Of a DNA stretch of 64,000 nucleotides, positions 31,348 to 63,186 are shown piece by piece; positions within the stretch are counted from its first letter, which is position 1, and each line of letters begins with the position of its first letter. The notes below the pieces were generated by a model. It did not search any database. It saw nothing but the letters and a program-made list of their open reading frames with translations, and was not told the origin of the DNA. Origin of the DNA: Verrucomicrobiota bacterium (lineage in GTDB: Bacteria; Verrucomicrobiota; Verrucomicrobiia; Verrucomicrobiales; Verrucomicrobiaceae); NCBI GenBank assembly GCA_040386955.1, contig JAZKER010000043.1, positions 1,847 through 65,846 on the forward strand. Direction: 5' to 3'. Both the position numbers and the translations under genes were made by a program.

Positions 31348-31815
31348 ATGCCTCACGTCCCCGGTCTCCGCAGTTGCTACGCCAAAGTTGGCCGCCTCAT
31401 CCACTTCGGCCGCATGCTTGATAAAATTCGTCTTCATGCCCAGAGCAGGCTTCCTGCCGACTACGTGCCACTCGTCGGCGATGCCCAAGTTTACACGCTC
31501 GACAGCCGCCTCTGCCGCTTCCTTGGCGTGCCTTATGAGATCATCCGGGACCACGTCCTTCTCCATCCCGCCGCGAGTGATGAGGACATCCTCGCCTGGA
31601 CTCAGGCACGCGGCGCTCTGCGTTCGGATGAAGAGTGCCACATTTGGAACCGCTTCATTGCCAAACTCGGCTGGCGGGATGAACGCAGCCACGTCCTCCC
31701 CCAGCGCATCATCGACAGCGGCCTAACCGGAAAGACCATCGAAACCCTCATCGACCACATTGAGTACGACGAAGGCCGTGACCCCGTCGCCGACCGCTCC
31801 TGGGAGAAGATCTAG
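31348..31815 (+). CDS. DUF5069-like protein
   Basis: N-terminal GRLIHFGRMLDKIRLHAQSRLPADY pattern, which I recognise as DUF5069-type. About 155 aa. Confidence 0.55.
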   Translation: MPHVPGLRSCYAKVGRLIHFGRMLDKIRLHAQSRLPADYVPLVGDAQVYTLDSRLCRFLGVPYEIIRDHVLLHPAASDEDILAWTQARGALRSDEECHIWNRFIAKLGWRDERSHVLPQRIIDSGLTGKTIETLIDHIEYDEGRDPVADRSWEKI

Positions 31816-31949
31816 CAGATCGTTGTCAGGCGTCATCGTTAGCAATCATTCTCCCATGTCCCCCTAACGCTGATGTTGGTATGCGACCGCGTCGCTGTCC
31901 TGGAATTTTGGTGACACGCCTGCTCTGGCGGGGTAAAGCAAGCGACTGT

Positions 31950-32744
31950 ATGTGGAACTTGCGAATGAATCAAATGTGGTTGGGCATCAGCCTTTTAATT
32001 TTTATGCCTGCAATGGTTCAGGCGGATGGAAAACATTTGGAAGTGATGGCTCCTCTCTGTAGGCAAAATGATTTTCATGGTAAACCACACTTGGTGACGG
32101 AAAGCAGTTTCGAGTCCCTCGAGGGGGATCATGACAAATTGGAATCCGTCAAGCGTTCTGAGTATGACAAAGATGGAAACGCGATCCGGGTGGAAACCTT
32201 TGATTCTTCAAATCGTAAGACTGACTCAGAGATATACACTTACGACGAGGGGGGCACGTGGGTATCACTTGTTGAATTGAGCGAGGGTACCCAAACCGCC
32301 TTTCAAATCTTTGTGGATCTCAAAACGAAACGCATCGCCAAGGTGGACCAGCGATCAAAAAATACCGAGTTCATCAGCTATTCCGAGCAAGGCTTTGAAT
32401 TGGGAAGTATTACTCAAACTATCGCAGGGAAGACCTTGGAGAAGACGACATTCAGGCGGAATGCCCTCAACAAAGAAGAACATGTTCTTTTTGAAGAGCC
32501 GATTGGAAAAAAGACATCCGAATTTATCATCCAATGGCTGCCCGAGGGCTTTGAGCGTACTTCCACCATCATCATGCACGACAAGGACGGGGATCAATTC
32601 GTCATGACTTATGAATACCCTGAAATCGATTCGGCAGGGAATTGGCTGACCCAGATTGAAAAATCAGTTCTGATTCTAAAGAACGGCGAAAAACGTTCAC
32701 TGCCAACTGTGACCAACAAACGAAAGATCTCCTATTATCCTTAG
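31950..32744 (+). CDS. Orphan secreted protein, AT-rich gene, with YD-like motifs
   Basis: Visibly lower GC than its neighbours. Signal-like segment MWNLRMNQMWLGISLLIFMPAMVQA. Motifs YDKDGN and YTYDEGG. Start is ambiguous (31881, 31950, 31965 or 31974). Confidence 0.5.
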   Translation: MWNLRMNQMWLGISLLIFMPAMVQADGKHLEVMAPLCRQNDFHGKPHLVTESSFESLEGDHDKLESVKRSEYDKDGNAIRVETFDSSNRKTDSEIYTYDEGGTWVSLVELSEGTQTAFQIFVDLKTKRIAKVDQRSKNTEFISYSEQGFELGSITQTIAGKTLEKTTFRRNALNKEEHVLFEEPIGKKTSEFIIQWLPEGFERTSTIIMHDKDGDQFVMTYEYPEIDSAGNWLTQIEKSVLILKNGEKRSLPTVTNKRKISYYP

Positions 32745-42882: not shown

Positions 42883-44154
42883 TCACCCCATCACGCCCCT
42901 CAGTACCCCCATCTGCGACTTCGCCCGCTCCTCCACATACGCCATCGCCTTCTTCACCTTCGCCTCCGCCGCCGGGTAGTCTTTGTGAATCCCCATCAGG
43001 ATCTCAAACATCTTCTCCGCCGGCGTTGCATCAAACTCCGGCGCCCATTCCTCCAGGCCGATGTCCTTGAACATCCAGCACTTCGGCGAGTGAAACTCCG
43101 AAAACGTGTGCATCATCGGCGTCCCCATCGCCAGGGCCATGATCGGCGTGTGCGGTTCGTGACAGATCACCGTATGCGCCCGCGCATAGAAGGAGCAGGC
43201 CTCGTCCACATTCCAAAATTCGTCAAAGTTCACCACGTGCTTCTTCAGGTCATCCGGCAGCGGATCATAGACAAATTTCTTGTTATACTCCATCTCCTTT
43301 CGCACCTCGGGAGCAATCACCACCTTGTAGCCCGTTTCCTTCACCCACATGGCGATGAGGTCCTGGTAAACTTTCGCGCGACGGGTGTCATCGGCGATGT
43401 TCTCCGGCGTCGGGTTCAGCGGATTCAGCTTCTGCGGCCGTTTGTCATCCACCCCTGGGCTCGTCGGTGAATGCGTGCGCAATTGCAGGGTGATGAATTT
43501 CTTCTCCTCCAGCCCATGCTTCTTCATCCGCGCCAGCGCCTTCTCCTCATCGCGCACATCAATGCCAAAGCAGCCATCCGGGCCGAACTCCAGCACCGGC
43601 GGCTTCACGCCCACGTCCTGCAGCAGCTTCAGCGTCTTGGAATCCCGGCAATAGATGAAGGCCGCACCATTCAGCAGGGCGATGCGTTTCTCCGCATCCT
43701 TGCCCGTCACCATGTCCGGAAAGTACGACTGCCCCTGCAACCCCCACGGTTTGCCGATCTTCTGGCAATAGGCCATGAAATCCGTCGGCTGCCCCATGCC
43801 CGGCCCGCGCAGGAAAAAGTCACTGCGCCCCACCGCCTTTTGCACCGCCCCGTCTTTCTCCGAGAGCGATCCCTTCACGATCTCCAGCTTCGGAAACCGC
43901 TTCATCAGCATCGCATCCACCTCCTCATTCGTGTTCGCCGCCCAGAGAATCATCTTCGCCTCCGGCAGATACTGCTCCAAAAACCGCAACGTCCCCGGTG
44001 TATGCCCAATGTCCCCAATGTTCTTCGTCGCCCAGGCACACTGCAGCAGCACCGTCTTCTGCTTTCCAGTGGATTGGGCAAGAGCCGCAGCAGGCAAGGA
44101 GGCAGCGCCAAGCGCAAGACCGGAGTTTTTGAGGAAGGAACGACGTGAAAGCAT
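42883..44154 (-). CDS. Polysaccharide pyruvyl-transferase-family protein with a twin-arginine signal
   Basis: MLSRRSFLKNSGLALGAASLPAAALA is a consensus SRRxFLK leader. N-terminal NIGDIGH and C-terminal ARAHTVICHEPHTPIMALAMGTPMM resemble PS_pyruv_trans blocks. Confidence 0.6.
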   Translation of the reverse strand: MLSRRSFLKNSGLALGAASLPAAALAQSTGKQKTVLLQCAWATKNIGDIGHTPGTLRFLEQYLPEAKMILWAANTNEEVDAMLMKRFPKLEIVKGSLSEKDGAVQKAVGRSDFFLRGPGMGQPTDFMAYCQKIGKPWGLQGQSYFPDMVTGKDAEKRIALLNGAAFIYCRDSKTLKLLQDVGVKPPVLEFGPDGCFGIDVRDEEKALARMKKHGLEEKKFITLQLRTHSPTSPGVDDKRPQKLNPLNPTPENIADDTRRAKVYQDLIAMWVKETGYKVVIAPEVRKEMEYNKKFVYDPLPDDLKKHVVNFDEFWNVDEACSFYARAHTVICHEPHTPIMALAMGTPMMHTFSEFHSPKCWMFKDIGLEEWAPEFDATPAEKMFEILMGIHKDYPAAEAKVKKAMAYVEERAKSQMGVLRGVMG

Positions 44155-44265
44155 AAGAACAAAAAGTGTAGAACGGATAAAAGGGCAACAACAACCCTAT
44201 TCTTGTCACGGACGTTTCAAACGGAGGGCTGGCCTGAGGTCAGGCAACGGCCCGTCTTTTCAAAA

Positions 44266-46839
44266 TCAGATCCGGCGCAGGATATCGAGCGGTGGATGAT
44301 TGGAAACACCCCGGCTAAGAGCGAGGCCTCCCAGAACGGAGATGGCCGTGGTGGTGACAAAGGCACCCAGCAGTGTCACGACATCCGGCGACGGCGAAGT
44401 TTTGAAAACGTAAACGGCGAGGATAGAAGTAGCTCCCACGGCGAGAAGAGTTCCGGTGAGGGCGGAAAGGAAACCAAGGGTGGCGTACTCGATGACGAGG
44501 ATGGTGCGGACCTGCCGCGCAGATGCGCCGAGCGTTCGGAGCAAGACACTTTCGCGCAGGCGCACATCTCGACCATTGAGCAGCGTGCCCACCACAATGG
44601 GCAACGCAGCGATCAGCGTAAATCCACCCATGATCGTGATGACCCACGAGATCTTCGAGAACAGCGAGCGAATCGTTTCTAAAATCTGGGACAGGTCAAT
44701 GGAGGAGACGTTGGGAAACTCTCGCGTCAGGCCTTGTTGCAGGCGGCCTACCGCGGCTGCATCCGGGGTGCGAGTGGTCACCACATGAAATCCCGGTGCA
44801 CCGTCCAGAGGTCCAGGCGGAAAAACCATGAAGAAGTTGAGGTTAAACCGGCTCCAATCCACTTTTCGGATGCTGGTCACGCGGGCTTCCAGGGTGATGC
44901 CCTGGATATCCAGCGTCAGCGTGTCGCCAAGTTGAAGGCGCATGTCCCCGGCGATTTTTTCTTCGAGCGAGACCGGTATGGGGCCATCTGGACTGGGCAG
45001 GTTCTCATGCCATTCTCCGGCAACCAGAGTTTCACTGGAGTTCAGATTCGCTCGATAGGTGGACCGGAATTCACGGTTGGCAATCCAGCGCGGCACCCCT
45101 TCCGCCTTAGTGACTGGCACGCCTTTGAGGGCCTGGACCCGCATGGTGACCATGGGGGCGGTTTCTAAAACGGGCAGCCCCTGGCTTTTCACCAGCGAAG
45201 TCACGCCTTCGACTTGATCAGGCTGGACGTCGATCAGGTACAGGTTGGGGTTTTCCTGGGTCTCGCTGATGCGGAGACGTTGCTGCAAAAGATCCCCGGC
45301 TAGCAGGATGGTGAGCAGGAGAAAGGTGCCCAGCCCGAGCGAGAGCAGAAACAGCAAGGTCTGGTTGCCGGGTCGATGAAGATTGGAAATGCCCTGCCGC
45401 AGGAGGTAAGGCCAACTTGGCCGGACGATGCGGCGCGTCACAGCCACCAGCACCCGGGCCACCCCAATGACCAGGGCAAAAGCAGCGCCAAGTCCGCCAA
45501 CCAAAAGCACGGCACGTTTCCAGTCCGCATCATTGGTTAGGGATAGCAGGAGCAGCAGGGCGGTGAGAAGCAAATAGACTGGCAACGTGCGGAGGGGGTT
45601 ACCAGGTAAAAAGTTGCCGCTGCGCAGCGTGGCAGCCGGTGAAATGCGATGAATTTTCAGGATAGGGATGAGCGCGAAACCACAGCACACGCCCAGGCCC
45701 GCCAAGGTGGTGCGAAAGACGATGGCCCATTCGGGGGCGACCTCCACAGCTACTGGAAGGCTGTCTTTAAACAAGACCAGCAGGCCGGTTTGCAAAAGCA
45801 CCCCCAGCCCCGCACCCAGGATGGCCCCCAGAAGGGCCAGCGTGGCGCTCTGGGCGATGTAAACGGCTGCGGCGAGCTGCCGTGGCGCGCCGAGACAGCG
45901 CAAGATGGCGATGGTGGTAACGCGCCGATTAATGTGGGACTGCACCGCCCCCGCTACCCCCAGGGCACCGAGGGCCAGGGACGCCAGCGCCAGGATGCCG
46001 AGGTATCGTTGAAACAAATCCAGGGCATCGCCCAGGGTTTCCTGGCGGTCCCCCGGTGTCTCCAGTCGCCAGGACGAGGTGGGGAATTCGCGGCGCAGGT
46101 TTTCCTTCAGCTCGGCAGAGGGAGATTTTTGGGCGGTTTCGAGATGGACCAGATGGGTCACCATGCTGTTGGCGCCGATGAGTCCGCTCTGCTGGATATC
46201 GGACAGGTGAACATACGCCTCGGGGGCGATGCCACTGAAGCGGCTGGCGCGCGGCGGGGAGTTGAGGATGCTGCCGAGAATCTTCAAATGCAGGCGGCCC
46301 AGCTCGATCTCGTCGCCTAGCTTCACCTGGAATTGCTCCAAAAGGGAAGCCTCTAAAAACACGCCGGGCTGATCCGAGCGGCGCTGCCAGGCATCCGCAG
46401 GAAGCGTTTCGATTTTCCCATAATAAGGATACTCGCCTTCGAGGGCGCGCACGTTCACCAGCCGTGCCCCGCCATTGGGGAAGGTCATCATGGATGGGAA
46501 GGCAACCTCGCGAGTGGTCCGGGAGGAAATCTTGGCCAGCTTGTCAAACTCCTCCGCCTTGATCGGCTGCGAGGAAGAGACCTGAAGATCCGAGCCGAGG
46601 AGTTCCTTGGCCTGGGTTTGGATGCCGGTTTCGACACTGCCTTTCAGCGAATGAATGGCGACCAGCGCGGCGATGCCGGAAACGATGGCGAGGGAGAAAA
46701 TGAGCAAGCGCAGGCGCTGTGTGCGGCTGTCCCGCCACGCCATCTGCCAGGTCCAGGGATGCAGCAGGGCAGGGATGAGGTGGGTCGGGAGCGGGCGTGG
46801 ATCAGACGGCATTTTCTTCCTCCGCGATGATCTTCCCAC
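44266..46839 (-). CDS. ABC transporter permease, double FtsX/MacB-type (YbbP-like)
   Basis: About 850 aa with two FtsX-like 4-TM modules separated by large periplasmic domains. It overlaps or abuts the ATPase gene. Start could instead be 46812 or 46743. Confidence 0.85.
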   Translation of the reverse strand: MGRSSRRKKMPSDPRPLPTHLIPALLHPWTWQMAWRDSRTQRLRLLIFSLAIVSGIAALVAIHSLKGSVETGIQTQAKELLGSDLQVSSSQPIKAEEFDKLAKISSRTTREVAFPSMMTFPNGGARLVNVRALEGEYPYYGKIETLPADAWQRRSDQPGVFLEASLLEQFQVKLGDEIELGRLHLKILGSILNSPPRASRFSGIAPEAYVHLSDIQQSGLIGANSMVTHLVHLETAQKSPSAELKENLRREFPTSSWRLETPGDRQETLGDALDLFQRYLGILALASLALGALGVAGAVQSHINRRVTTIAILRCLGAPRQLAAAVYIAQSATLALLGAILGAGLGVLLQTGLLVLFKDSLPVAVEVAPEWAIVFRTTLAGLGVCCGFALIPILKIHRISPAATLRSGNFLPGNPLRTLPVYLLLTALLLLLSLTNDADWKRAVLLVGGLGAAFALVIGVARVLVAVTRRIVRPSWPYLLRQGISNLHRPGNQTLLFLLSLGLGTFLLLTILLAGDLLQQRLRISETQENPNLYLIDVQPDQVEGVTSLVKSQGLPVLETAPMVTMRVQALKGVPVTKAEGVPRWIANREFRSTYRANLNSSETLVAGEWHENLPSPDGPIPVSLEEKIAGDMRLQLGDTLTLDIQGITLEARVTSIRKVDWSRFNLNFFMVFPPGPLDGAPGFHVVTTRTPDAAAVGRLQQGLTREFPNVSSIDLSQILETIRSLFSKISWVITIMGGFTLIAALPIVVGTLLNGRDVRLRESVLLRTLGASARQVRTILVIEYATLGFLSALTGTLLAVGATSILAVYVFKTSPSPDVVTLLGAFVTTTAISVLGGLALSRGVSNHPPLDILRRI

Positions 46840-47527
46840 CCTCCATTTTCACCACGCGCCGGGCTTTCGCGGCTAGGCCGGGGTCATGCGTCACAATCAC
46901 CAGCGCCGTGCCTGCCTCACGATTCAGCCGGAACAGCATCTCCACAATGGGCGCGCTGGTGGCGGCGTCGAGGTTGCCCGTGGGTTCATCGGCCAGGAGG
47001 ATTTTTGGGCGATGCACAAACGCTCGGGCCAGGGCCACGCGTTGCTGCTCGCCGCCCGAAAGCTGGGCGGGGTAATGCCCCAACCGCTTGCCCAGGCCCA
47101 CTTCATGGAGCAGGGCTTCCGCCACTTTTTGGCGACCTGTCTCGCCCCGCAGTTCCAGCGGCACCAGCACGTTCTCCAGGGCGGTCAGTGTTGGGATGAG
47201 TTGGAAGTTTTGGAAAACGAAACCCACCAGCTTATTGCGCAGCGCCGCCCGCGCATCCTGGGAAAGGTTTTCAAAAGCCTGCCCATCGAGTTTCAGGGAG
47301 CCGGATGTGGCATCGTCCAGCCCGGCGCATAGGCCTAACAGCGTGGTCTTGCCACTTCCTGAGGGACCGGTGATCGCCAGCGTGTCGCCCGCATCCAGCG
47401 TCAGGTTGATGTCGTTCAGCACCGTCAGCTCATGCTCGGCACTGCGATAGATTTTTTGGAGCGCCTGGATCTCCAGGATGGGCCGTTTGACAGCCGCAGT
47501 CGATGATTCTAGTCTGGCAGATGACAT
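46802..47527 (-). CDS. ABC transporter ATP-binding protein (YbbA/LolD-like)
   Basis: GPSGSGKTT, LSGGEQQRVALARA, ILLADEPTGNLD, VTHD. Confidence 0.9.
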   Translation of the reverse strand: MSSARLESSTAAVKRPILEIQALQKIYRSAEHELTVLNDINLTLDAGDTLAITGPSGSGKTTLLGLCAGLDDATSGSLKLDGQAFENLSQDARAALRNKLVGFVFQNFQLIPTLTALENVLVPLELRGETGRQKVAEALLHEVGLGKRLGHYPAQLSGGEQQRVALARAFVHRPKILLADEPTGNLDAATSAPIVEMLFRLNREAGTALVIVTHDPGLAAKARRVVKMEGGKIIAEEENAV

Positions 47528-47529
47528 GG

Positions 47530-48180
47530 ATGAAATGGCTGGTGTTCGGACTGCTGATGTCAGTGTCGGGGGGCTGGATGGCTACGTTGCCCGCCCAAAC
47601 CGCAGCCGTAGGAAAAAAAAGAATCGTCGTTTTAGGCGACAGCATCTCCGCCGGCTACGGCCTGGATCGTGATCAAGCCTACCCAGCTTTGTTGCAAAAG
47701 AAAATGGATGCCGAGGGCCTGCCCTATGAGGTGGTGAATGCCGGTGTGAGTGGCGATACCACCGCTGGCGGCCTCCGGCGGATCGACTGGGCCCTGGGCC
47801 CGAAAGGCGCGGACGTGCTGGTGATCGCCCTCGGCGGCAATGACGGCCTGCGCGGCGTCTCCCCCGAACAGACGGAAAAGAATCTGACCGGCATCGTTGC
47901 CAAAGCCCGCGCCAAGAACCCCACCATCAAGATCCTCATCGCCGGCATGCAGATGCCCGATAACCTCGGCCCCAAGTACGTCGAGGCCTTCAAAGCCGTG
48001 TTCCCCAAAGTATCCACCACCGAAAAAACCGACCTCCTCCCCTATCTCCTCGAAGGCGTCGGCGGCGATGAAAAACTCAACCAACCCGACCGCATTCATC
48101 CCACGGCAGAGGGGCAGCAGAAGATTGCCGATTTGGTCTGGGCAAAGCTGAAAGCCATGCTGCCCGAGGCGGCCCATTGA
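47530..48180 (+). CDS. GDSL/SGNH arylesterase-lysophospholipase (TesA-like)
   Basis: Signal peptide, then VVLGDSISAGYG, GGNDG and DRIHP blocks. It is divergent from the ABC ATPase with only 2 nt between the two start codons, the same module order as E. coli tesA-ybbA-ybbP. Confidence 0.85.
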   Translation: MKWLVFGLLMSVSGGWMATLPAQTAAVGKKRIVVLGDSISAGYGLDRDQAYPALLQKKMDAEGLPYEVVNAGVSGDTTAGGLRRIDWALGPKGADVLVIALGGNDGLRGVSPEQTEKNLTGIVAKARAKNPTIKILIAGMQMPDNLGPKYVEAFKAVFPKVSTTEKTDLLPYLLEGVGGDEKLNQPDRIHPTAEGQQKIADLVWAKLKAMLPEAAH

Positions 48181-48229
48181 TCCAAGCCTGTCGAGCAACC
48201 CCTTTTAAGTGAAGAGCGAGGGCACTTGT

Positions 48230-48606
48230 AAACAGGCCGCTTTGGTCTAGAGACGCTCTATCTTCACCATCCGCTTTGGCACAATCCCGATTGACCGGTC
48301 CAGCAGCACCCCTTGTGGAGGAGAAGTCCGCACGGTTCACCGCGACCGGTATCGGCTTGGAGAGGTGGCTTTCACGACTTTCAGCCTACTAAAACTTTTA
48401 TCCGAATTGCATCCGTCTCCTCATTGGTGCTCATCGCCCGGGGAAGAATTTCACCTCCAGCATCTACTACCTCAAAAACCGCAATGTCACTGGTGTATGC
48501 CTAGCGTCCCCAGTATTCTTCGTCCCGAGTCCACACTGGAGCAGGGGGGACCAGTGAACTGCGCGGCAGCAGGCGAGGCCGACGCGGCAAAAAATGCGGC
48601 GTTAGA
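48230..48606 (-). pseudogene. Decayed N-terminal fragment of a paralogue of the 42883-44154 pyruvyl-transferase-like gene
   Basis: Nucleotide-level similarity is visible: 48445-48545 matches 43950-44050 at roughly 75-80 percent. The minus-strand reading LLQCGLGTKNTGDARHTPVTLRFLR** compares with LLQCAWATKNIGDIGHTPGTLRFLEQY. There are in-frame TAG TAG codons at 48464-48469 and several frameshifts. The leader is cut at about 48606 and the C-terminal ~290 codons are missing. Confidence 0.65.
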
Positions 48607-48733
48607 TCAGATGTATAAAGCTAACCGATGAATGAAGAACGTCATCTTTTCGAATTCTCATATTTGCTGTTCCGATCGTTTCAGAAATAGCTTGATATTT
48701 CATTATGCAATGGGAAATCTCTTAAAATACAGA

Positions 48734-48762
48734 TGTTTAGAATTCGGGTGCCTTTATATAAT
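48734..48762 (+). promoter_or_regulatory. Candidate sigma-70-like promoter of the island operon
   Basis: tgttta (48734-48739), 17 nt spacer, then tataat (48757-48762), about 25 nt upstream of the ATG at 48787. No experimental support. Confidence 0.3.
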
Positions 48763-48786
48763 TCCCATTTAGAACCAAGATAAATC

Positions 48787-49707
48787 ATGGCCTGGAGCAC
48801 AGATGACTGGCAAGAATACAATATGTCGCTTGCTGCGCAGTTTCACCGAGGATCGTTTCAAACTATTCCTGACAATCACGGTGGTGATGGTGGATTGGAA
48901 GGATTTTCGAAAGATGATCTCGCCGTTGGCTATCAGTGCTATGTGCCAGAGGAAGATGCCGAGAGTTCATTCGCTACACGAATTCTCAGAAAGATCAATA
49001 GCGACACCCTAAAACTTAAAAAAAACGCTGTTTTTTTCAGTAAATGCCTTGATGCTATCAAATTAAAGCGATGGACACTGATCATACCGGCTGAGTATTT
49101 GAAAGATAATCAATTAACTCAACACGTCGGTGTACGAACGGGCGAAGTACGTTCTTGGGATCTGTCTTTCATCGACAAACAGTTTACCATCACAGTCGGC
49201 TCTGGTGCTGAGTTTGATGGTGTCCGAGATCGTTGTCGTGAGTTTGGTAGAAAAAGAATAAATATACTGACTGAACCTCCTACTGATACCGAGCAAAAAG
49301 AATGGGAGCTTGCTAACGAACCCAAGATGCAATTGCTTGATGACAAGTTGGGTAAATCGAAGCGTCCCCGACTAGCAATTTCAGCTATCCGGTCAGCACT
49401 TGTCCGGAATGCAGTAATTGCTCAAAACGCCTTCAATCGGATAGAAAAAGAGGATCCTGAAGGATGGGAGAGACTAGTTAAAACAAAAAGTGAGAAGAGA
49501 GATGCATTGGAATTGGAAAGTGCGTTGAATACTGCAATCCCTGCGGAATTTATTACAAAGGTAAAAGCCGAATACCAGGCCAGAGCGCTTGAGGTAATGC
49601 CCGCACTGACAGAGGCTGCAGCACGAATACTTGCGGACGAAGCTATCGTGGAGTGGTTATTTGCTTGTCCCCTTAACTTCTTTGAAAGTGAATCTGATGG
49701 AAAGTGA
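48787..49707 (+). CDS. Island gene A: putative effector (LmuA / ABC-3C effector position), N-terminal REase-like motif plus helical C-domain
   Basis: 306 aa. GGDGGLEGF...GYQCY (residues 32-52) resembles Mrr-type DGGIDG...QxK but carries Y in place of K. The C-terminal ~130 aa are predicted helical. It overlaps gene B by 11 nt. Confidence 0.55.
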   Translation: MAWSTDDWQEYNMSLAAQFHRGSFQTIPDNHGGDGGLEGFSKDDLAVGYQCYVPEEDAESSFATRILRKINSDTLKLKKNAVFFSKCLDAIKLKRWTLIIPAEYLKDNQLTQHVGVRTGEVRSWDLSFIDKQFTITVGSGAEFDGVRDRCREFGRKRINILTEPPTDTEQKEWELANEPKMQLLDDKLGKSKRPRLAISAIRSALVRNAVIAQNAFNRIEKEDPEGWERLVKTKSEKRDALELESALNTAIPAEFITKVKAEYQARALEVMPALTEAAARILADEAIVEWLFACPLNFFESESDGK

Positions 49708-50188
49708 TGCCTTAGATCTCCTTACACAATTGGGCGCAACGTTTACTTTTAGAAAACGCCCCATCCCAATTCCTTACGATATGCGAGCAGATTATCGTAT
49801 TGCAATCATACTGCTTATGTTACGCTACTGCGGATGGAAAGGACAGGCTCCTTTAGCAAAACTACATGTTCTAAATTGGGCACACAGAACAACAGACGGT
49901 CAACGTGCCTTATTGGATCGCCTTGATGGCAATTTGCACATGAGGGGCATCCAGATAAAGTTTGATCCGGCTTTTAGTCGCGCTATCGACTTGTCGCGGG
50001 GCGAAGGTTTAATAGAACGGACAGAATCTCATGCTTTAGTCCTGACTCCGTCAGGCAATGCTTGGCTGGATGAAATTGAAAGCGATGCTTCATGTCTAGT
50101 ACAGGAAAGAAATTTTTTCGAATCAGTTGGCATGCGGCTTAAAAACTCAATACTTAAATCCATTCTTAACCCTTCTTCAATATGGTGA
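49697..50188 (+). CDS. Island gene B: small middle component (LmuC/DdmB / ABC-3C MC position), probable winged-helix
   Basis: 163 aa starting at MESDALDL, inside the track ORF 49631-50188. The segment GEGLIERTESHALVLTPSGNAWL looks like a wHTH wing. Its stop overlaps the gene C start (ATGGTGA). Confidence 0.5.
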   Translation: MESDALDLLTQLGATFTFRKRPIPIPYDMRADYRIAIILLMLRYCGWKGQAPLAKLHVLNWAHRTTDGQRALLDRLDGNLHMRGIQIKFDPAFSRAIDLSRGEGLIERTESHALVLTPSGNAWLDEIESDASCLVQERNFFESVGMRLKNSILKSILNPSSIW

Positions 50189-52341
50189 AACTTCGTATTA
50201 GAGAGTTGAGGATTTTAGTTCAAACTGCCATTGGTGAATTTGGAGTCAAACTATCACTGCAGAATGGATTGACCGTCATTCGAGCTGACAATTCCTCGGG
50301 TAAATCCACGATTGTTCAAAGCATGATTTATGGACTTGGACTGGAAGGAATGTTAAGTGCTAGTCGAAGCGTACCTTTGCCGCACGCGATAACTCATATG
50401 ATTGATGCGGAGGATGGTTCACGCCATGAAGTTATATCCTCTGAAGTTCAGTTAGAATTTTCTAACCACGATGGTCACATCGTAACGACTATTAGGCGTG
50501 TAAAAGGGGCGCTTAATCACAATTTAATTACTGTTGTTCACGGTCCGGCAATCTCTGCTCCTGACCCCGTTATTCCCTATGAGCTGGAGGACAAATATGT
50601 CAGAGATCGTGGTGCAGCCACCAAGCCTGAGGGCTTTCATTATTGGTTATCAACGTTTCTCGGCTGGACGCTGCCACAGGTGACCACCTTCGATGGAAAG
50701 TCTTGCCCTCTTTACATTGAATCTATGTTTCCCCTGATTCTTATCGAGCAGAAGAAGGCCTGGACAGGAATTCAAGCGCGAATGCCAACTCAGTTTCAGA
50801 TTCGTGATGCATCAAAACGCGCAATTGAGTTCATCCTAAAATTGTCTGTGTTCGAATTGATTGCAAAGGCACAGCAACTTCGTGATGCAAAGGCGGAGAT
50901 TCAGCGGCAATGGCAACGGTGGACGTTAGAAGCATCTTCAGCCGCCAGGCAGGCTGGCGGCATTATCAATGGTTTAACTGAGATGCCAATGAAGCAATGG
51001 TCGGTCAAAGAACCTGTTACATTAATGCTTTATCGTGATAATCGATGGGTGGATATCAACCAGGCAAAACAAGCAGATCAAACAGAGATTGATAGCTTGA
51101 TATCAAAGGAAATCCCCGAAGTATCTGCGGTTTCGGATCAGCTAACCGCACAATTGAGAGAAGTTGAGGAAGAGTTGCAAACTATCCAAGTTACCTTGGT
51201 TGAAGCTATTCAGGATGTTAGTGCTAAACGTGTGCAGATGACGGGCCTAGAAGCCAGGCTAGTTGAATTGGCCGACGATCTTGCAGGTAATAAATCTGTT
51301 CGTAAACTCCGAACAATGGGGGCAAGATATATACCAAAAATTGTAACTGATCACCGTTGTCCCACTTGCCATCAAAACGTGGACGAAAGTTTGTTGCCTC
51401 AAGATAATGCAGTTAACGTAATGTCACTCGAAGACAGTATTAATTTTATTGAGGCTCAGCAAGAAATTTACAATGCTGCAAAAGGTAGTTTGATTCGAGC
51501 TATTTCTGTTATAAACGCGGAAATAGCTGCGTTGAGAGAAAAGGAGGCTGAAATACGTGCTAGGATTAGGGCCCTCAAAACTAGCTTGGTTTCCGAAGGA
51601 CATGCGCCATCACGCGCTGCTATTGAAGCCTTACAAGTTGCTCAAGCTCGCTTAGCTCGAACAATCGAAGCCGAAAATATTATAGAAGTAGATTTCTCTC
51701 AGCTTAAATCTCTTTGTTCTCAATGGTTGGCTGTAACAGAGGAGTTAAAAAAGTTACCTGATGACTATTTAACTAAGGACGATCAGCGCAAAATTAAGAC
51801 GTTGGAGATGCTCTTCCAATCGCATGCCACTGCGTTTGATGTGCGAAGCGTGGCCCCCAAAGATATTACGTTGTCGAGGGAGAGCTACAAGCCTGAATAT
51901 AAGGGTTTCGATTTGGAATTCGATCTTTCGGCTAGTGATTTGATCCGCACCATTTGGGCCTATCTTCATTCGCTGTTGGAGCTAGCTCGCGAGGAGGATA
52001 CTAATCATCCCGGTTTGCTTGTACTTGATGAACCAAGGCAGCAAGACACGAATCGAGAGAGCTTTGCGAGTTTCTTCGTGCGTGCTCAAACTTCTGCGGA
52101 TTTTGACCAACAAGTGATTGTCACGACAAGTGAGAAGGAGGAGGAACTAAAGCGCATTCTGGACGGAGTGGCTCATCGATTAATTGAATTTAAGACAGAT
52201 CACATTCTGACCCGCGTCCCCTCCCAGGGAAATGATTCACAGGATTTGCCTGCAAAAGAAGAGGTAGATACACCTCTGAATGATGCGCCTCAGGAAACTA
52301 AAACCGCTGAAGCTAGCGACGATGACGATATTCCGTTTTAA
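50182..52341 (+). CDS. Island gene C: ABC/SMC (Rad50/LmuB-like) ATPase with long coiled-coil insert, CxxC hook-like motif and SSB-like acidic C-terminal tip
   Basis: Walker A ADNSSGKST (50284-50310). About 390 aa of heptad-rich sequence with CPTC at its centre (51358-51369). Degenerate signature LSASD. Walker B LLVLDEP (about 52015-52035). Tail ends ...ASDDDDIPF. Confidence 0.8.
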   Translation: MVKLRIRELRILVQTAIGEFGVKLSLQNGLTVIRADNSSGKSTIVQSMIYGLGLEGMLSASRSVPLPHAITHMIDAEDGSRHEVISSEVQLEFSNHDGHIVTTIRRVKGALNHNLITVVHGPAISAPDPVIPYELEDKYVRDRGAATKPEGFHYWLSTFLGWTLPQVTTFDGKSCPLYIESMFPLILIEQKKAWTGIQARMPTQFQIRDASKRAIEFILKLSVFELIAKAQQLRDAKAEIQRQWQRWTLEASSAARQAGGIINGLTEMPMKQWSVKEPVTLMLYRDNRWVDINQAKQADQTEIDSLISKEIPEVSAVSDQLTAQLREVEEELQTIQVTLVEAIQDVSAKRVQMTGLEARLVELADDLAGNKSVRKLRTMGARYIPKIVTDHRCPTCHQNVDESLLPQDNAVNVMSLEDSINFIEAQQEIYNAAKGSLIRAISVINAEIAALREKEAEIRARIRALKTSLVSEGHAPSRAAIEALQVAQARLARTIEAENIIEVDFSQLKSLCSQWLAVTEELKKLPDDYLTKDDQRKIKTLEMLFQSHATAFDVRSVAPKDITLSRESYKPEYKGFDLEFDLSASDLIRTIWAYLHSLLELAREEDTNHPGLLVLDEPRQQDTNRESFASFFVRAQTSADFDQQVIVTTSEKEEELKRILDGVAHRLIEFKTDHILTRVPSQGNDSQDLPAKEEVDTPLNDAPQETKTAEASDDDDIPF

Positions 52342-52369
52342 TAGGAATGTTCTTATCTAGCATCCCGCT

Positions 52370-53755
52370 TTATAACACCCTCACCATCTCTTCCATCCGC
52401 TTCGTCGCGATGCCAATGGGCCGGTCGAGGGGCACGCCTGCGCAGGTCAGTAGTGTGGTGAGCAGATCTCCCTGATTGCCTTGGGTATCGGCCAGGAAAC
52501 GGCCGGTGTTGACGGAGCCGCCGCCTTTGCCGACGATGATGAAGGGGAGGTTTTTGCGGCTGTGGTCGTTGCCGTCTTCCAGGCCGGAGCCCCACATCAT
52601 GAGGCAGTTGTCCAGGAGGCTGCCGTCGCCTTCGCGGAGGCTGGCCATCTTTTTCACCATGTAGGCAAACTGGGTGATGTTGAAAGCGGTGATGGCGGCG
52701 ACTTTCGCGACTTGATCGGCCTTGTGGTTGTGATGCGTCTGGGAGTGATGCGAGTCGGTGAAGCCGAGTTCCGGATACGAGACACCATTGGGCGTGGAGC
52801 CGATGTAGGTGCTGACGCGGGTGGTATCCGTCTGGAAGGCGAGCACGTTGAGGTCGCACATGACCTGCATGTATTCGCTGCGTTTGTCGCCCTCGGGAAT
52901 GCGGATCTCGATGGGCGGTGAATCCGTGGCGCTGCGCTTGCTGGAGGCGACCCCGGCTTTCTCCAGGGCGGATTCTTTCTGGCGCATTTCGATGGCGGCG
53001 ATGCGGCGCTCCACAGAGCGCACGCTGTCCAGGTATTCGTCCAGCTTGTGCTGGTCGTTCTGCGGCAGCTTCTTGCGCAGGTCCCGCGCACCGCCGATCA
53101 CCAGGTCCAGCATCTGCCGCTCCAGCGGATCGGCCTTGCGGCTGCTGCCGGAGGAGTCCGACTTGCCGAACAAACGATTCAGTACGTTGCGCGGATTGAT
53201 CTCTGCCGGGACGGCCTGCGTGGGCGAGCGGTAGCTGCAGTGCGAGTAGTAACCTTCGTTCAGGCCTTCCTGGTTCTCCTTGTGCGTCTGCGGCATGGTG
53301 GCCAGCTCCAGCGAGGGCAGGGAAGTCATCGCACCCACGTAGTTCGCGGCGATCTGGTCCGCCGAGATGGCGATGTGGATCTGGTTGCGCTTGCTCGGGT
53401 CTGGCAGGCAGGCGGTGAGCCAGGTGGAAAGCTCCAGCGCATGCGGAGCGCCATTGAAGGGGGCGATGGGCACCCCGGAGATGCCCTTCATCAGCAGGCA
53501 CTGATCCAGAATGGGCCGCAGGGACTCCAGCGCAGGGGGCGGGGAGCTGAGGTAGCTCTCCGGCGTGGCAGGCCAGAACTGATCTGGAATCACCCCATGC
53601 GGCATGTACATGAACCCGAGGCGCACGGGTGGCTTCACCGCCGCCCGCCCTTTGACGGAGTCTGCCCAGCCCATCGTTTCCAAAAGCGGCAGGCCCAGGC
53701 TGGCTCCAATGCCTTTCAAATACGTGCGGCGATCAATGAGGTTCTTGCGGGTCAT
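52370..53755 (-). CDS. DUF1501-family (sulfatase-like) protein with Tat-type leader
   Basis: [26 protein letters not shown] leader. The size and the pairing with an upstream DUF1592-type gene are typical of PVC genomes. Confidence 0.85.
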
Positions 53756-53783
53756 GGCAGGGACAATGGAAGGGGGGCTAAAC

Positions 53784-55724
53784 TCAGTCTTGGACGCGGC
53801 GATTCAGAAAGGGGTAACTGGTGACGATCTCCGTGATGAGGGTCTGCATCCGATAGCCATCCTGGGCGATGGTTTTCATGAGCTGATCCACCACGATCTT
53901 GTCATAACCTTCAAGCTGCCGGCACAGCGCATAGGCCATGAGCTTCTCCGTTAAGTTACGGGCCAGATCGTCCTTTCGTGCAGCGATGATGCTTTTCAGC
54001 TCGCCAGGGGTGGAGAACCGCTTGCCCCCTGGCAGCTCGCCCGCGGCATCAATGGCCCCGCCCGTATCATCCTTGTCCCGCCAGCGGCCGATGGCATCGA
54101 AGTTCTCCAGGCCAAAGCCGATGGGGTCCAGGATCTTGTGGCAGTTGGCGCACACGGCATTCGTCCGGTGCAGTTCCGTGCGCTGTCGCAGGGTCAGATT
54201 GGCCACCTGTTTTTGGTCCTGCTTTTCCAGTGCCGGGACATTCGGCGGGGCAGGGGGCACGTGCTCCCCCAGCACCTGCTCCAGCACCCACACGCCCCGG
54301 TTCACCGCGCTGGTGCGGTTGGGGAAAGAGGTGGTGGCCAAAATGCCCGGCATGCCCAGGATGCCACCGCGATTCGCATTCGTCAGCTTCACCTTGCGCA
54401 TCTTGGGCCCGGTGACGTCCTTCTCCAGGCCATAGACCTTGGCCAGTGTCTCATTGAGGAAGGTGTAGTCGCTGGCCACAAAGGCGACCACGCTGAGGTT
54501 CCCCCGCACGATGCTGTCAAAGAACAGCCGCGCCTCATCATACATGGCCGTACGCAGCGCGGGTGTCATCTGCGGGAACTTCTTTGGATCAAACGTCTTA
54601 CCCTCCAGACTGCCCAAACCCAGCCACTGTGACCCGAACCCATCAAACAAGGCCCGTGCACGAGGATCGGCCAGCATGCGTTTCACCTGGACCTTGAGTA
54701 CTCCGGGTTCATGAAGCTTGCCCGCATCCGCCTGCGCGGACAGCTCCTCATCCGGCATCGTGGCCCACAGCAGATACGACAGACGGGATGCGAGTTGGTA
54801 ATCATCCAGGGGTACGATGGTCTTGCCGGCCTCCGCTTCCTTCGCCGGAGTGATGTAAAGGAATTGTGGGGATACGAGCAATGCTTTGAGCATCAGGCGC
54901 AGCGACCCTTGGTAATCCAGTTGGTTAGACCGACCCAGATCAAACACGCCCGCCAGCGTGGCCACCTCCGCCTCTGAGGGCGGCCTGCGGTAGGCGCGTC
55001 GCGCCAGCGTGCGGGCCACCTTCTGAGCGGATTCGCGTTCATCCGTTCCTGGGGCTGGTGGTTTGCCTAACCAACGATTCTGCCATTTCGTGGGCGGCTT
55101 CCCCGGTGCGGCAAAGATGCGGTCCAGCACTTCATTGGCGATGCCGAGGTATTGCTCCGTCTGCATGGGGGAGAGCGAATTCAGATACCCCTGGCCGGCC
55201 ACCTCATCCGGCAGTTCCTCCGCCACCGCAGGGTCCACGCCAAAGAGATCGTGCAGCGTGTTGCCATACTCCACCTTGGTCAGGCGACGGATGACAAACG
55301 GGCCCGGATCCTTCGCGCTGAGGTACTTGACCTTGCCCAGGCTTTGCAGAAACAGCTCGCGCTCCTCATTCGCAGGCTGGTCCGAATCATCCGGCGGCAT
55401 GTCATGCGCGTTCACATTGGCAAAGGCCTGCATCCATTTCCGGCTCGCCGAAGACTCGCCTGGATTCTTCAGTGCCGGCTCAAAGTTCAGCCCGCCCTTC
55501 GTGCGCCGGTTGCTATGGCACTCGATGCAATACGTCTTCACAAACGGCGCCACGCCTTTCTTGAACGACTCTTTCGCCTCCGCCTGCAGCGCGGCAAATT
55601 CCGCATCTGCCACCCCCTCGGCTGGCATCCGACTAGGCATCGCCAGCATCAGCCCAAGGCTCAACACACTGAAAAACATCAGGCCAGGGCTGGTCAATTC
55701 GGATTTCGTCATTCGGATCTTCAA
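53784..55724 (-). CDS. DUF1592/DUF1595/DUF1588/DUF1585-type protein with planctomycete cytochrome-c motif
   Basis: N-terminal CIECHS (CxxCH) and C-terminal [25 protein letters not shown] (DUF1585-like). Confidence 0.85.
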
Positions 55725-55887
55725 AAAGGGGGAGCATTAACTACGGACAGCGGCCCGTCTCCTTATCAGGAAACCGACATTGAGATGATGCGTAAACCAT
55801 GATCCAAGCCCTTATTTTGGGCCTCAATAAGATGATGATGTGGCTCTTGGTTTGACAACATGAGAAGAGGAACGTTCCGTCAACGAC

Positions 55888-63096: not shown

Positions 63097-63186
63097 TGGC
63101 GGTGAGAGAGGGATTCGAACCCTCGGTAGCGGTAAGGCTACGTATCTTTAGCAAAGATATGCTTTCGACCACTCAGCCATCTCACC
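63097..63186 (-). tRNA. tRNA-Ser (anticodon GCU), CCA encoded
   Basis: Minus-strand GGTGAGATGGCTGAGTGGTCGAAAGCATATCTTTGCTAAAGATACGTAGCCTTACCGCTACCGAGGGTTCGAATCCCTCTCTCACCGCCA. 7-bp acceptor stem, anticodon stem TATCT/AGATA with loop TTGCTAA, long variable arm, T-loop GGTTCGAATCC, discriminator G. Confidence 0.9.

Follow-up and report, generated by a model that had tools for sequence, protein, structure and literature searches.

A probable short Lamassu operon with an SSB-like LmuB tail at a tesA-like/DUF1552 site in a Verrucomicrobiota bacterium

Gene content, composition and assignment of the operon

We analysed a 64,000-nt stretch of DNA from a bacterium of the Verrucomicrobiota (GenBank assembly GCA_040386955.1, contig JAZKER010000043.1, positions 1,847 to 65,846 of the forward strand; hereafter the window), in which a three-gene operon occupies an AT-rich segment at 48620-52369. 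The operon, which a preliminary description had placed in the Lamassu/ABC-3C class of defence systems, lies on the + strand and comprises lmuA (gene A, 48787-49707, 306 aa), lmuC (gene B, 49697-50188, a middle component of 163 aa read from the ATG at 49697) and lmuB (gene C, 50182-52341, an SMC/Rad50-like ABC ATPase of 719 aa). Read directly, lmuA and lmuC overlap by 11 nt (ATGGAAAGTGA, 49697-49707) and lmuC and lmuB by 7 nt (ATGGTGA, 50182-50188), and the list of open reading frames (ORFs) together with the sequence bears out the chain of three same-strand frames that had been described. The collection's own LmuB gene call (P0014, 718 aa) begins at the GTG at 50185, one codon after the ATG at 50182; the overlap with lmuC is kept either way.

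The segment stands apart from the rest of the window in base composition. Its GC content is 0.440, against 0.593 +/- 0.014 across all other segments of equal length (z = -10.8), the lowest of which reaches 0.556. In 100-nt steps, GC falls from 0.51-0.65 to 0.33-0.35 near 48600 and is back at 0.58-0.62 by 52350, confirming the sharp drop at about 48615 and the recovery after 52341 reported earlier. GC at third codon positions (GC3) is 0.36-0.40 in lmuA, lmuC and lmuB versus 0.71-0.83 in six flanking genes. Upstream of lmuA, on the + strand, an AT-rich leader with a GC of 0.33-0.43 (48620..48786) is, from its composition, the presumed promoter region.

All three products match subtype-specific PADLOC profiles. 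Protein A matches LmuA PDLC03852 (4.1e-10), protein B matches LmuC PDLC03871 (7.8e-19, residues 17-157), and protein C matches LmuB PDLC03863 (2.1e-106, residues 4-672 of 719); in PADLOC, A and B match the LmuA and LmuC models alone. The genes are co-directional and tightly linked in the order A-C-B, and the same triad recurs in unrelated genomic contexts. These results uphold the class placement made earlier, which had rested on the order effector, small component and SMC-like ATPase. We consider it probable that the segment is a horizontally acquired 'short' or type II Lamassu (LmuA-LmuC-LmuB, equivalent to ABC-3C) abortive-infection system, lodged in a chromosomal hotspot between a tesA-like and a DUF1552 gene. 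Lamassu-family systems are reported to act by abortive infection.

As a Lamassu operon the locus is ordinary, and Lamassu has been reported in ~10-15% of prokaryotic genomes. The preliminary description had singled it out as the best candidate for a novel system variant in the window; that claim was not sustained, because all three genes are already modelled in PADLOC-DB v2 (2023), and 55 of the 57 sampled LmuA relatives match PDLC03852, the best at 1.9e-39. The operon is a fairly divergent member of this existing subtype (PDLC03852/PDLC03871/PDLC03863), its LmuA matching at 4e-10 only, and it presents no new architecture. PDLC03852 and PDLC03863 may correspond to the 'hypothetical-effector' Lamassu subtype of DefenseFinder, a correspondence that carries no weight as evidence here. 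We found no evidence in the literature that the subtype has been tested experimentally.

Several results weigh against the Lamassu assignment. Neither Pfam nor NCBIfam offered a family for A or B: in Pfam, protein B had no match to an ABC-3C middle-component (MC) family, and protein A reached the C-terminal-domain family CTD7 only below threshold (E = 0.19; 12.4 bits against a cut-off of 27.6). A search of the leader at 48620-48786 for a sigma-70 consensus on the + strand found none, which is why its promoter function is presumed from composition. In the accessible part of Millman et al., six Lamassu-family operons were tested, and this LmuA family is not evident among them. Protein C, for its part, had no Pfam match to DUF3732, so that the Pfam checks suggested earlier (DUF3732, ABC-3C MC and CTD) yielded nothing above threshold for this subtype, whereas the PADLOC models match. 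Searching PDB sequences with the individual proteins or with profiles retrieved no Lamassu chain, and for A and B it gave nothing but noise; sequence similarity of the operon proteins to the solved Lamassu chains was not detectable.

The closest characterised counterparts are the short or type II Lamassu systems, such as Vibrio cholerae DdmABC and Salmonella enterica LmuACB. The window operon resembles them in the order effector, middle component and SMC-like ATPase, in an LmuB with split ABC heads, a coiled coil, a CxxC hook and an hhhhDE Walker B, in a small LmuC and in a two-part LmuA. It differs as follows: the solved systems use a Cap4 nuclease head, whereas the window head belongs to no Pfam family and none of its fold matches is significant; the window LmuB carries an extra tail like that of the single-stranded DNA-binding protein SSB; and DUF3732 and the Pfam MC and CTD families are unmatched.

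The LmuA effector head

In the AlphaFold2 (AF2) model, LmuA consists of two domains, a head spanning residues 1 to ~160 and a helical C-terminal domain at ~165-300. The mean predicted local distance difference test score (pLDDT) was 80 for the full-length protein and 89 for the head alone, the latter with a predicted template modelling score (pTM) of 0.84. The C-terminal part ends in an invariant W290...C294-P-L-x-F. In a Foldseek search of the full-length model against the PDB, the best matches were the LmuA tetramers 9hr5/9nxx, and these were weak (E 0.04-0.09, prob 0.54-0.75).

The family to which this LmuA belongs is large. A word-indexed protein search returned 13 relatives, and an exhaustive profile search returned 927 cluster representatives (50%-identity level) at E <= 0.001, 438 of them at E <= 1e-30; nearly all are ~300 aa long and match over their full length. 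Most members of the family are 22-30% identical to the window LmuA. Across alignments of 13, 25 and 57 sequences, G33, D34, G36, E38, Q50, C51, Y52 and K69 are invariant or nearly so, and they form the putative active-site motifs G33-D34-G-G36-L-E38-G-F, Q50-C51-Y52 and K69 (48880..48993, + strand). The head is part of a sizeable family of ~927 cluster representatives that lacks a Pfam family, a structure and an assigned chemistry.

We favour, with moderate confidence, a reading of the modelled head as a divergent PD-(D/E)xK-type (Mrr-like) DNase. Its element order in the AF2 model is H-E-E-E-H-H-E-H-E-H, and relative to the PD-(D/E)xK core D34/E38 lie just before strand 2, Q50-x-Y52 lies on strand 3 and K69 lies on the next helix. 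With the Mrr and PD-(D/E)xK effectors (Lamassu-Mrr, Lamassu-PDDEXK, Cap4) the head would share the alpha-beta-beta-beta-alpha-beta core order, the GDGG(L/I)(E/D)G motif before strand 2 and a Qx- on strand 3; it differs in an invariant Tyr in place of the canonical lysine. K69, on the helix after strand 3, may substitute for that lysine. Nucleases are also the only recurring theme among the weak fold matches. Against BFVD, the best match of the head was a putative endodeoxyribonuclease I (E 0.019, prob 0.91, TM 0.41), accompanied by VRR-Nuc and 'nuclease' entries; against the PDB, Can2 appeared with the head and Shedu with the full-length protein.

The nuclease reading has to be set against a series of negative results that speak against it. 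Aligning the head profile with E. coli Mrr by hhalign places GDGGLEGF on GDGGIDGV at E 0.02 and a probability of 2%, which is not significant. Pfam found no Mrr_cat, nuclease or other family in the heads of the 57 relatives, only scattered chance matches, and single-sequence and profile searches of the PDB gave no sequence match for the head. No fold match reached E < 0.01, whether for the full-length protein against the PDB or for the head against the PDB (best E 0.07) and BFVD. Finally, the family motif is an invariant QCY, without the canonical (D/E)xK lysine. The earlier judgement that the effector head cannot be assigned with confidence agrees with this absence of Pfam, PDB-sequence and significant fold matches.

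The same negatives are what an alternative would predict in which the operon is a Lamassu system with a head that is not a nuclease, bearing instead some other toxic activity or a fold without a characterised relative. That alternative draws further on the invariant cysteine of the QCY motif and on the literature, in which Lamassu effector heads are very diverse, with at least nine domain types. We keep it as a serious competitor of the nuclease reading but regard it as the less likely of the two. The secondary-structure order and the positions of D34/E38 and Q50-x-Y52 fit the PD-(D/E)xK core, the weak fold matches recur only on nucleases (endonuclease I, VRR-Nuc, Can2, Shedu), and the GDGG(L/I)(E/D)G motif is like that of Mrr. 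Moreover, C51 has no invariant His partner, which argues against a Cys-His hydrolase.

Cassette exchange and mobility

The genome closest to that of the window is L007 (OW818661.1, a 6.17-Mb chromosome), whose tesA-like and DUF1552 proteins are 96% identical to those of the window. By blastn, window 42890-48184 corresponds to L007 5393-10682 (92%) and window 52375-55768 to L007 15929-19299 (86%), and no similarity was found between the two genomes inside the junctions at 48184 (the tesA stop) and 52375 (the DUF1552 stop). The variable segment thus runs, irrespective of strand, from the stop codon of the tesA-like gene to that of the DUF1552 gene (48185..52374). Its equivalent in L007 (L007:10683-15928) is a different low-GC Lamassu cassette of 5.25 kb with the same junctions, encoding an LmuA of 400 aa (PADLOC PDLC03848; Pfam CTD7 1e-37), an LmuC of 162 aa (PADLOC PDLC03870; Pfam MC3 6e-48) and an LmuB of 648 aa (PADLOC PDLC03859; Pfam DUF3732 3e-51).

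The two cassettes have in common their insertion site, orientation, A-C-B order and low GC. They differ in subtype, and the L007 system, with its longer LmuA and shorter LmuB, has neither a CxxC annotation nor a tail on LmuB and carries an additional 372-aa ORF after lmuB (L007:14779-15897), without a PADLOC or Pfam match, which could be an accessory or embedded defence gene. BLASTP between the two sets of Lamassu proteins aligned nothing beyond the Walker motifs, which indicates cassette replacement rather than divergence, and the LmuA family aligned to the L007 LmuA by hhalign gave no significant match. Because a different Lamassu subtype lies at identical junctions in L007, the tesA|DUF1552 site is a hotspot for the exchange of defence cassettes without an integrase. 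It offers a clean natural case of two unrelated Lamassu subtypes at the same junctions in sister genomes, with no integrase, and bears on how defence cassettes are exchanged.

An empty site, with the tesA-like gene and its neighbour joined without the 3.7-kb segment, had been proposed as a check on acquisition. None was found among 30 genome loci, where only L007 keeps the tesA-DUF1552 synteny, with the other Lamassu in place; nor did any of 80 metagenome loci with DUF1552 relatives have tesA or lmu genes nearby.

The operon has no integrase, transposase or tRNA gene within ~6 kb, in agreement with its earlier description as an integrase-less island; the sole tRNA gene of the window is at 63097-63186. 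The flanking genes encode a pyruvyl transferase, an FtsX/MacB permease, an ABC ATPase, a GDSL lipase, the DUF1552 protein, a PSD-domain protein, a 2'-5' RNA ligase-like protein and an AHSA1 protein. The right-hand neighbour (52370-53755, - strand) had been called DUF1501; it matches Pfam DUF1552/HXXSHH instead (2.9e-78) and is paired with a PSD1-5 domain protein at 53784-55724.

The 600-bp spacer to the left of lmuA holds two decayed gene fragments, both on the - strand. One (48250..48312) resembles the last 21 codons of a DUF1552 gene (tblastn, 12/21 identical, E 0.002 in a small search) and forms a direct repeat (D2) with 52386-52439, 72% identical over 54 nt. The other (48449..48544) derives from the 5' part of a pyruvyl-transferase paralogue (compare the gene at 42883-44154) and is 77% identical over 95 nt (D1), with 19/32 residues identical and two in-frame stop codons. 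These fragments suggest past rearrangements at the site. No flanking direct repeats of the att type were found, the 54-nt repeat D2 being the decayed gene fragment just described.

In other genomes the triad stands beside unrelated genes at L001, L003, L004, L005, L006 and L039, each a different neighbourhood, with its gene order, gene sizes and overlaps conserved. The encoded proteins measure 306/163/718 aa at L001 (overlaps of 11 and 7 nt), 308/164/681 aa at L003 (8 and 7 nt), 312/166/679 aa at L004 and 307/164/716 aa at L039 (11 and 7 nt), and a gene of 162-166 aa holds the lmuC position at these four loci. Members of the LmuB subfamily, ~35% identical, occur on 44 plasmids. One example is the conjugative Ti plasmid of Agrobacterium tumefaciens (L038, pTi NZ_CP048526.1:10251-20269), where an lmuA-lmuC-lmuB triad, annotated as hypothetical and with an LmuB 36% identical to that of the window, adjoins a transposase gene, a DUF6088/AbiEii pair and a RES toxin gene. 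A tblastn search of GenBank phages with LmuB gave no match, although both A (3.6e-10) and C (2.6e-89) have PHROG families. The foreign GC and GC3, the occurrence of the triad on plasmids and in unrelated contexts, and the occupation of this site by a different Lamassu in L007 together support the earlier proposal of horizontal acquisition.

A small gene pair was also observed at L039, in the genome that encodes the LmuB orthologue P0019. Genes of 95 and 191 aa, the latter with a weak DUF6036 match, lie at L039:2453-3308 between the genes for the flavoprotein and iron-sulfur subunits of succinate dehydrogenase, ~2.3 kb upstream of the Lamassu triad.

Decayed fragments beside the operon, the lack of a detected consensus promoter and an effector without the canonical catalytic lysine are features that a degenerating or inactive cassette, no longer providing defence, might also display. 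Such a remnant is very improbable here. None of the three ORFs is broken or shortened in comparison with its homologues, LmuB keeps its catalytic ATPase residues and LmuA every residue that is invariant in its family, and the overlaps of translational coupling are preserved exactly as in orthologues. The QCY motif is invariant across the whole LmuA family and therefore does not represent a local lesion.

The LmuB ATPase and its C-terminal tail

LmuB has the split-head organisation of SMC-like ATPases, and its motifs were scored for invariance over 28 homologues. In Pfam its only matches are to AAA_23/SMC_N at the N-terminus (AAA_23, 3.8e-6), families for which a check had been proposed earlier. 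The Walker A motif (A35-D-N-S-S-G40-K41-S42-T43; 50284..50310, + strand) has A35, N37, G40, K41 and S42 invariant, and the Q-loop residue Q190 is invariant as well. A signature-like SASD (583-586) and the Walker B/D-loop sequence LLVLDEPRQ (612-620) follow towards the C-terminus (51928..52041, + strand), with S583, A584, S585, D586, D616, E617, P618 and Q620 all invariant; the Walker B core LLVLDE occupies residues 612-617 and includes the catalytic glutamate E617. Some 330 residues of coiled-coil-type sequence separate the two head halves. The positions of the motifs, at 35-43 and 612-617, accord with the P-loop ATPase described earlier, with its Walker A at the N-terminus, its Walker B near the C-terminus and a coiled coil between them. 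Because Walker A, Q190, SASD, Walker B and E617 are invariant, the ATPase looks active, judged from its residues.

A zinc-hook motif, CPTC (C393-x-x-C396; 51358..51369, + strand), marks the apex of the coiled coil, with C393, P394 and C396 invariant, and every homologue has a single CxxC. The preliminary description had credited the ATPase with two unusual add-ons, this hook and the C-terminal tail. The hook is no unusual add-on, because CxxC hooks are already described as a variable but normal feature of LmuB, present in 0, 1 or 2 copies; only the SSB-like tail, discussed below, stands as unusual. In published work, defence depends on the ATPase motifs and, in the Salmonella system, on the zinc hook. 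Short Lamassu systems are characterised by a Walker B of the form hhhhD[Q/S/T/E], an LmuB of ~600 aa and 0-2 CxxC motifs, and long systems by hhhhDD, ~800 aa and 1 CxxC (PMC12663957). The window LmuB fits the short consensus through LLVLDE and has one CxxC; its body of ~675 aa falls between the short and long averages.

Some of the evidence on LmuB could be taken to indicate a housekeeping module for DNA repair or chromosome maintenance, of the SbcCD, Rad50-Mre11, RecN, RecF or SMC kind. Its PDB matches are weak and confined to Rad50 and SMC heads (Walker A), and its NCBIfam matches are likewise weak and to Rad50 and SMC heads. An SbcC-like PHROG family matches it at 5e-8, and Lamassu is thought in the literature to descend from SbcCD. 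With SbcCD and Rad50-Mre11 the protein shares the character of a zinc-hook, SMC-like ABC ATPase of a type that recognises DNA ends. The NCBIfam scores, however, are 13-31 bits against cut-offs of 300-1087 (SMC 27 vs 729; Rad50 20 vs 1087), and such values exclude the housekeeping families, leaving the operon outside the RecN, RecF and SbcC families that had been named earlier as an outcome that would overturn the defence assignment. The operon lacks an Mre11/SbcD phosphoesterase, and its partner genes match LmuA and LmuC; the coiled coil is much shorter than in SbcCD or Rad50; GC and GC3 mark the genes as foreign to their genome; the sister genome L007 does not have them and carries a different Lamassu at that position; and the distribution is patchy and includes plasmids. 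An SbcCD, RecN or RecF identity is rejected on the NCBIfam scores, the partner genes, the foreign GC and the absence from the sister genome, and a housekeeping role of any such kind is highly improbable. Least probable of all is another SMC/ABC defence family such as Wadjet or PbeABC, an identity suggested by secondary PADLOC matches of LmuB to PbeC (~1e-5) and other ATPase models but made improbable by the weakness of those matches, which lie ~100 orders of magnitude below the LmuB match and cover the coiled coil only, by the absence of JetA-, JetB- and JetD-like genes, and by the matching of A and B to LmuA and LmuC models only.

Read directly, the LmuB tail (residues ~673-719; 52198..52338, + strand) consists of a low-complexity linker of ~40 residues followed by an acidic tip, D713-D-D-D-I-P-F719 (52318-52338); the protein ends in ...TKTAEASDDDDIPF, the final residues being ASDDDDIPF. 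The tail is limited to the window LmuB and its six closest orthologues (>=56% identity), and sister LmuBs end ~40 residues earlier. Among the seven tailed proteins, mean pairwise identity is 62% in the body, 18% in the linker and 73% in the last seven residues, the tip follows the pattern [DE]4-IPF, and IPF is invariant.

This conservation is the pattern of the disordered linker and tip of SSB. The E. coli SSB tip, MDFDDDIPF, is the docking site of >17 genome-maintenance proteins (PMC7913777), and the last six residues of the window LmuB, DDDIPF, are those of E. coli SSB. The hallmarks of an SSB C-terminal tail (SSB-Ct) are a disordered linker of low conservation and, after it, a conserved acidic tip that ends in D-(I/L)-P-F; the LmuB tail shows both, and its tip likewise stands at the very C-terminus. 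The difference is that the tail sits on an SMC-like immune ATPase and not on an OB-fold single-stranded DNA-binding protein. The Lamassu structure and evolution literature that we searched makes no mention of SSB, and no paper combining 'SSB-Ct' and 'Lamassu' was found. The SSB-like tail of LmuB appears undescribed, and alone it would count as a new LmuB variant.

We tentatively propose, on the strength of this resemblance, that in this small clade the LmuB sensor may have acquired a mimic of the SSB C-terminal tail that couples the Lamassu complex to the SSB interactome. A functional link between the tail and SSB is plausible in view of the reported enrichment of LmuB at the lambda replication origin in infected cells and of work in Bacillus subtilis, where SbcC, a relative of the proposed Lamassu ancestor, needs the SSB C-terminus to localise at replication forks (PMC3000357). 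The tail could recruit the complex to fork and repair proteins (PriA, RecQ, RecG, ExoI, RecJ, the chi subunit). It could also serve as bait for phage proteins that hijack SSB. A third role could be that of an autoinhibitory pseudo-ligand, folded onto an SSB-Ct-binding surface inherited from an SbcC-like ancestor and displaced by DNA or SSB. If the proposal is true, an SMC-based defence system would be finding or sensing foreign DNA during its replication by a route not described before, and this operon would join the mimic to an effector head that may represent a new nuclease family. An SSB-type tip on LmuB provides a testable link from Lamassu sensing to the replication and repair hub, and could bear on how Lamassu finds its targets.

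Published work on Lamassu describes LmuA as sequestered in monomeric form by LmuB2-LmuC, with DNA-end sensing and tetramerisation activating it. By analogy, an LmuB dimer joined at the CPTC zinc hook would, with the help of LmuC, hold one LmuA monomer inactive, probably through contact with its helical C-terminal domain. Once a phage or plasmid invades, LmuB/LmuC would engage its DNA ends or replication intermediates and LmuA would be set free; the released protein would oligomerise, its N-terminal head becoming active and killing or arresting the cell. The step carried out by the head would be DNA cleavage by the divergent PD-(D/E)xK (Mrr-like) domain, as predicted from the arrangement D34/E38...Q50-x-Y52...K69 and the alpha-beta-beta-beta-alpha-beta order. 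In this scheme the DDDDIPF tail might tether the complex to SSB-interacting genome-maintenance proteins at forks, or might regulate it intramolecularly.

Elsewhere in the window, the only other 1-kb stretch with a GC below 0.5 lies at 31751 (0.479). The gene there (31881-32744) has a 287-aa product with a hydrophobic segment at its N-terminus and without an obvious function, and it may be another acquired gene.

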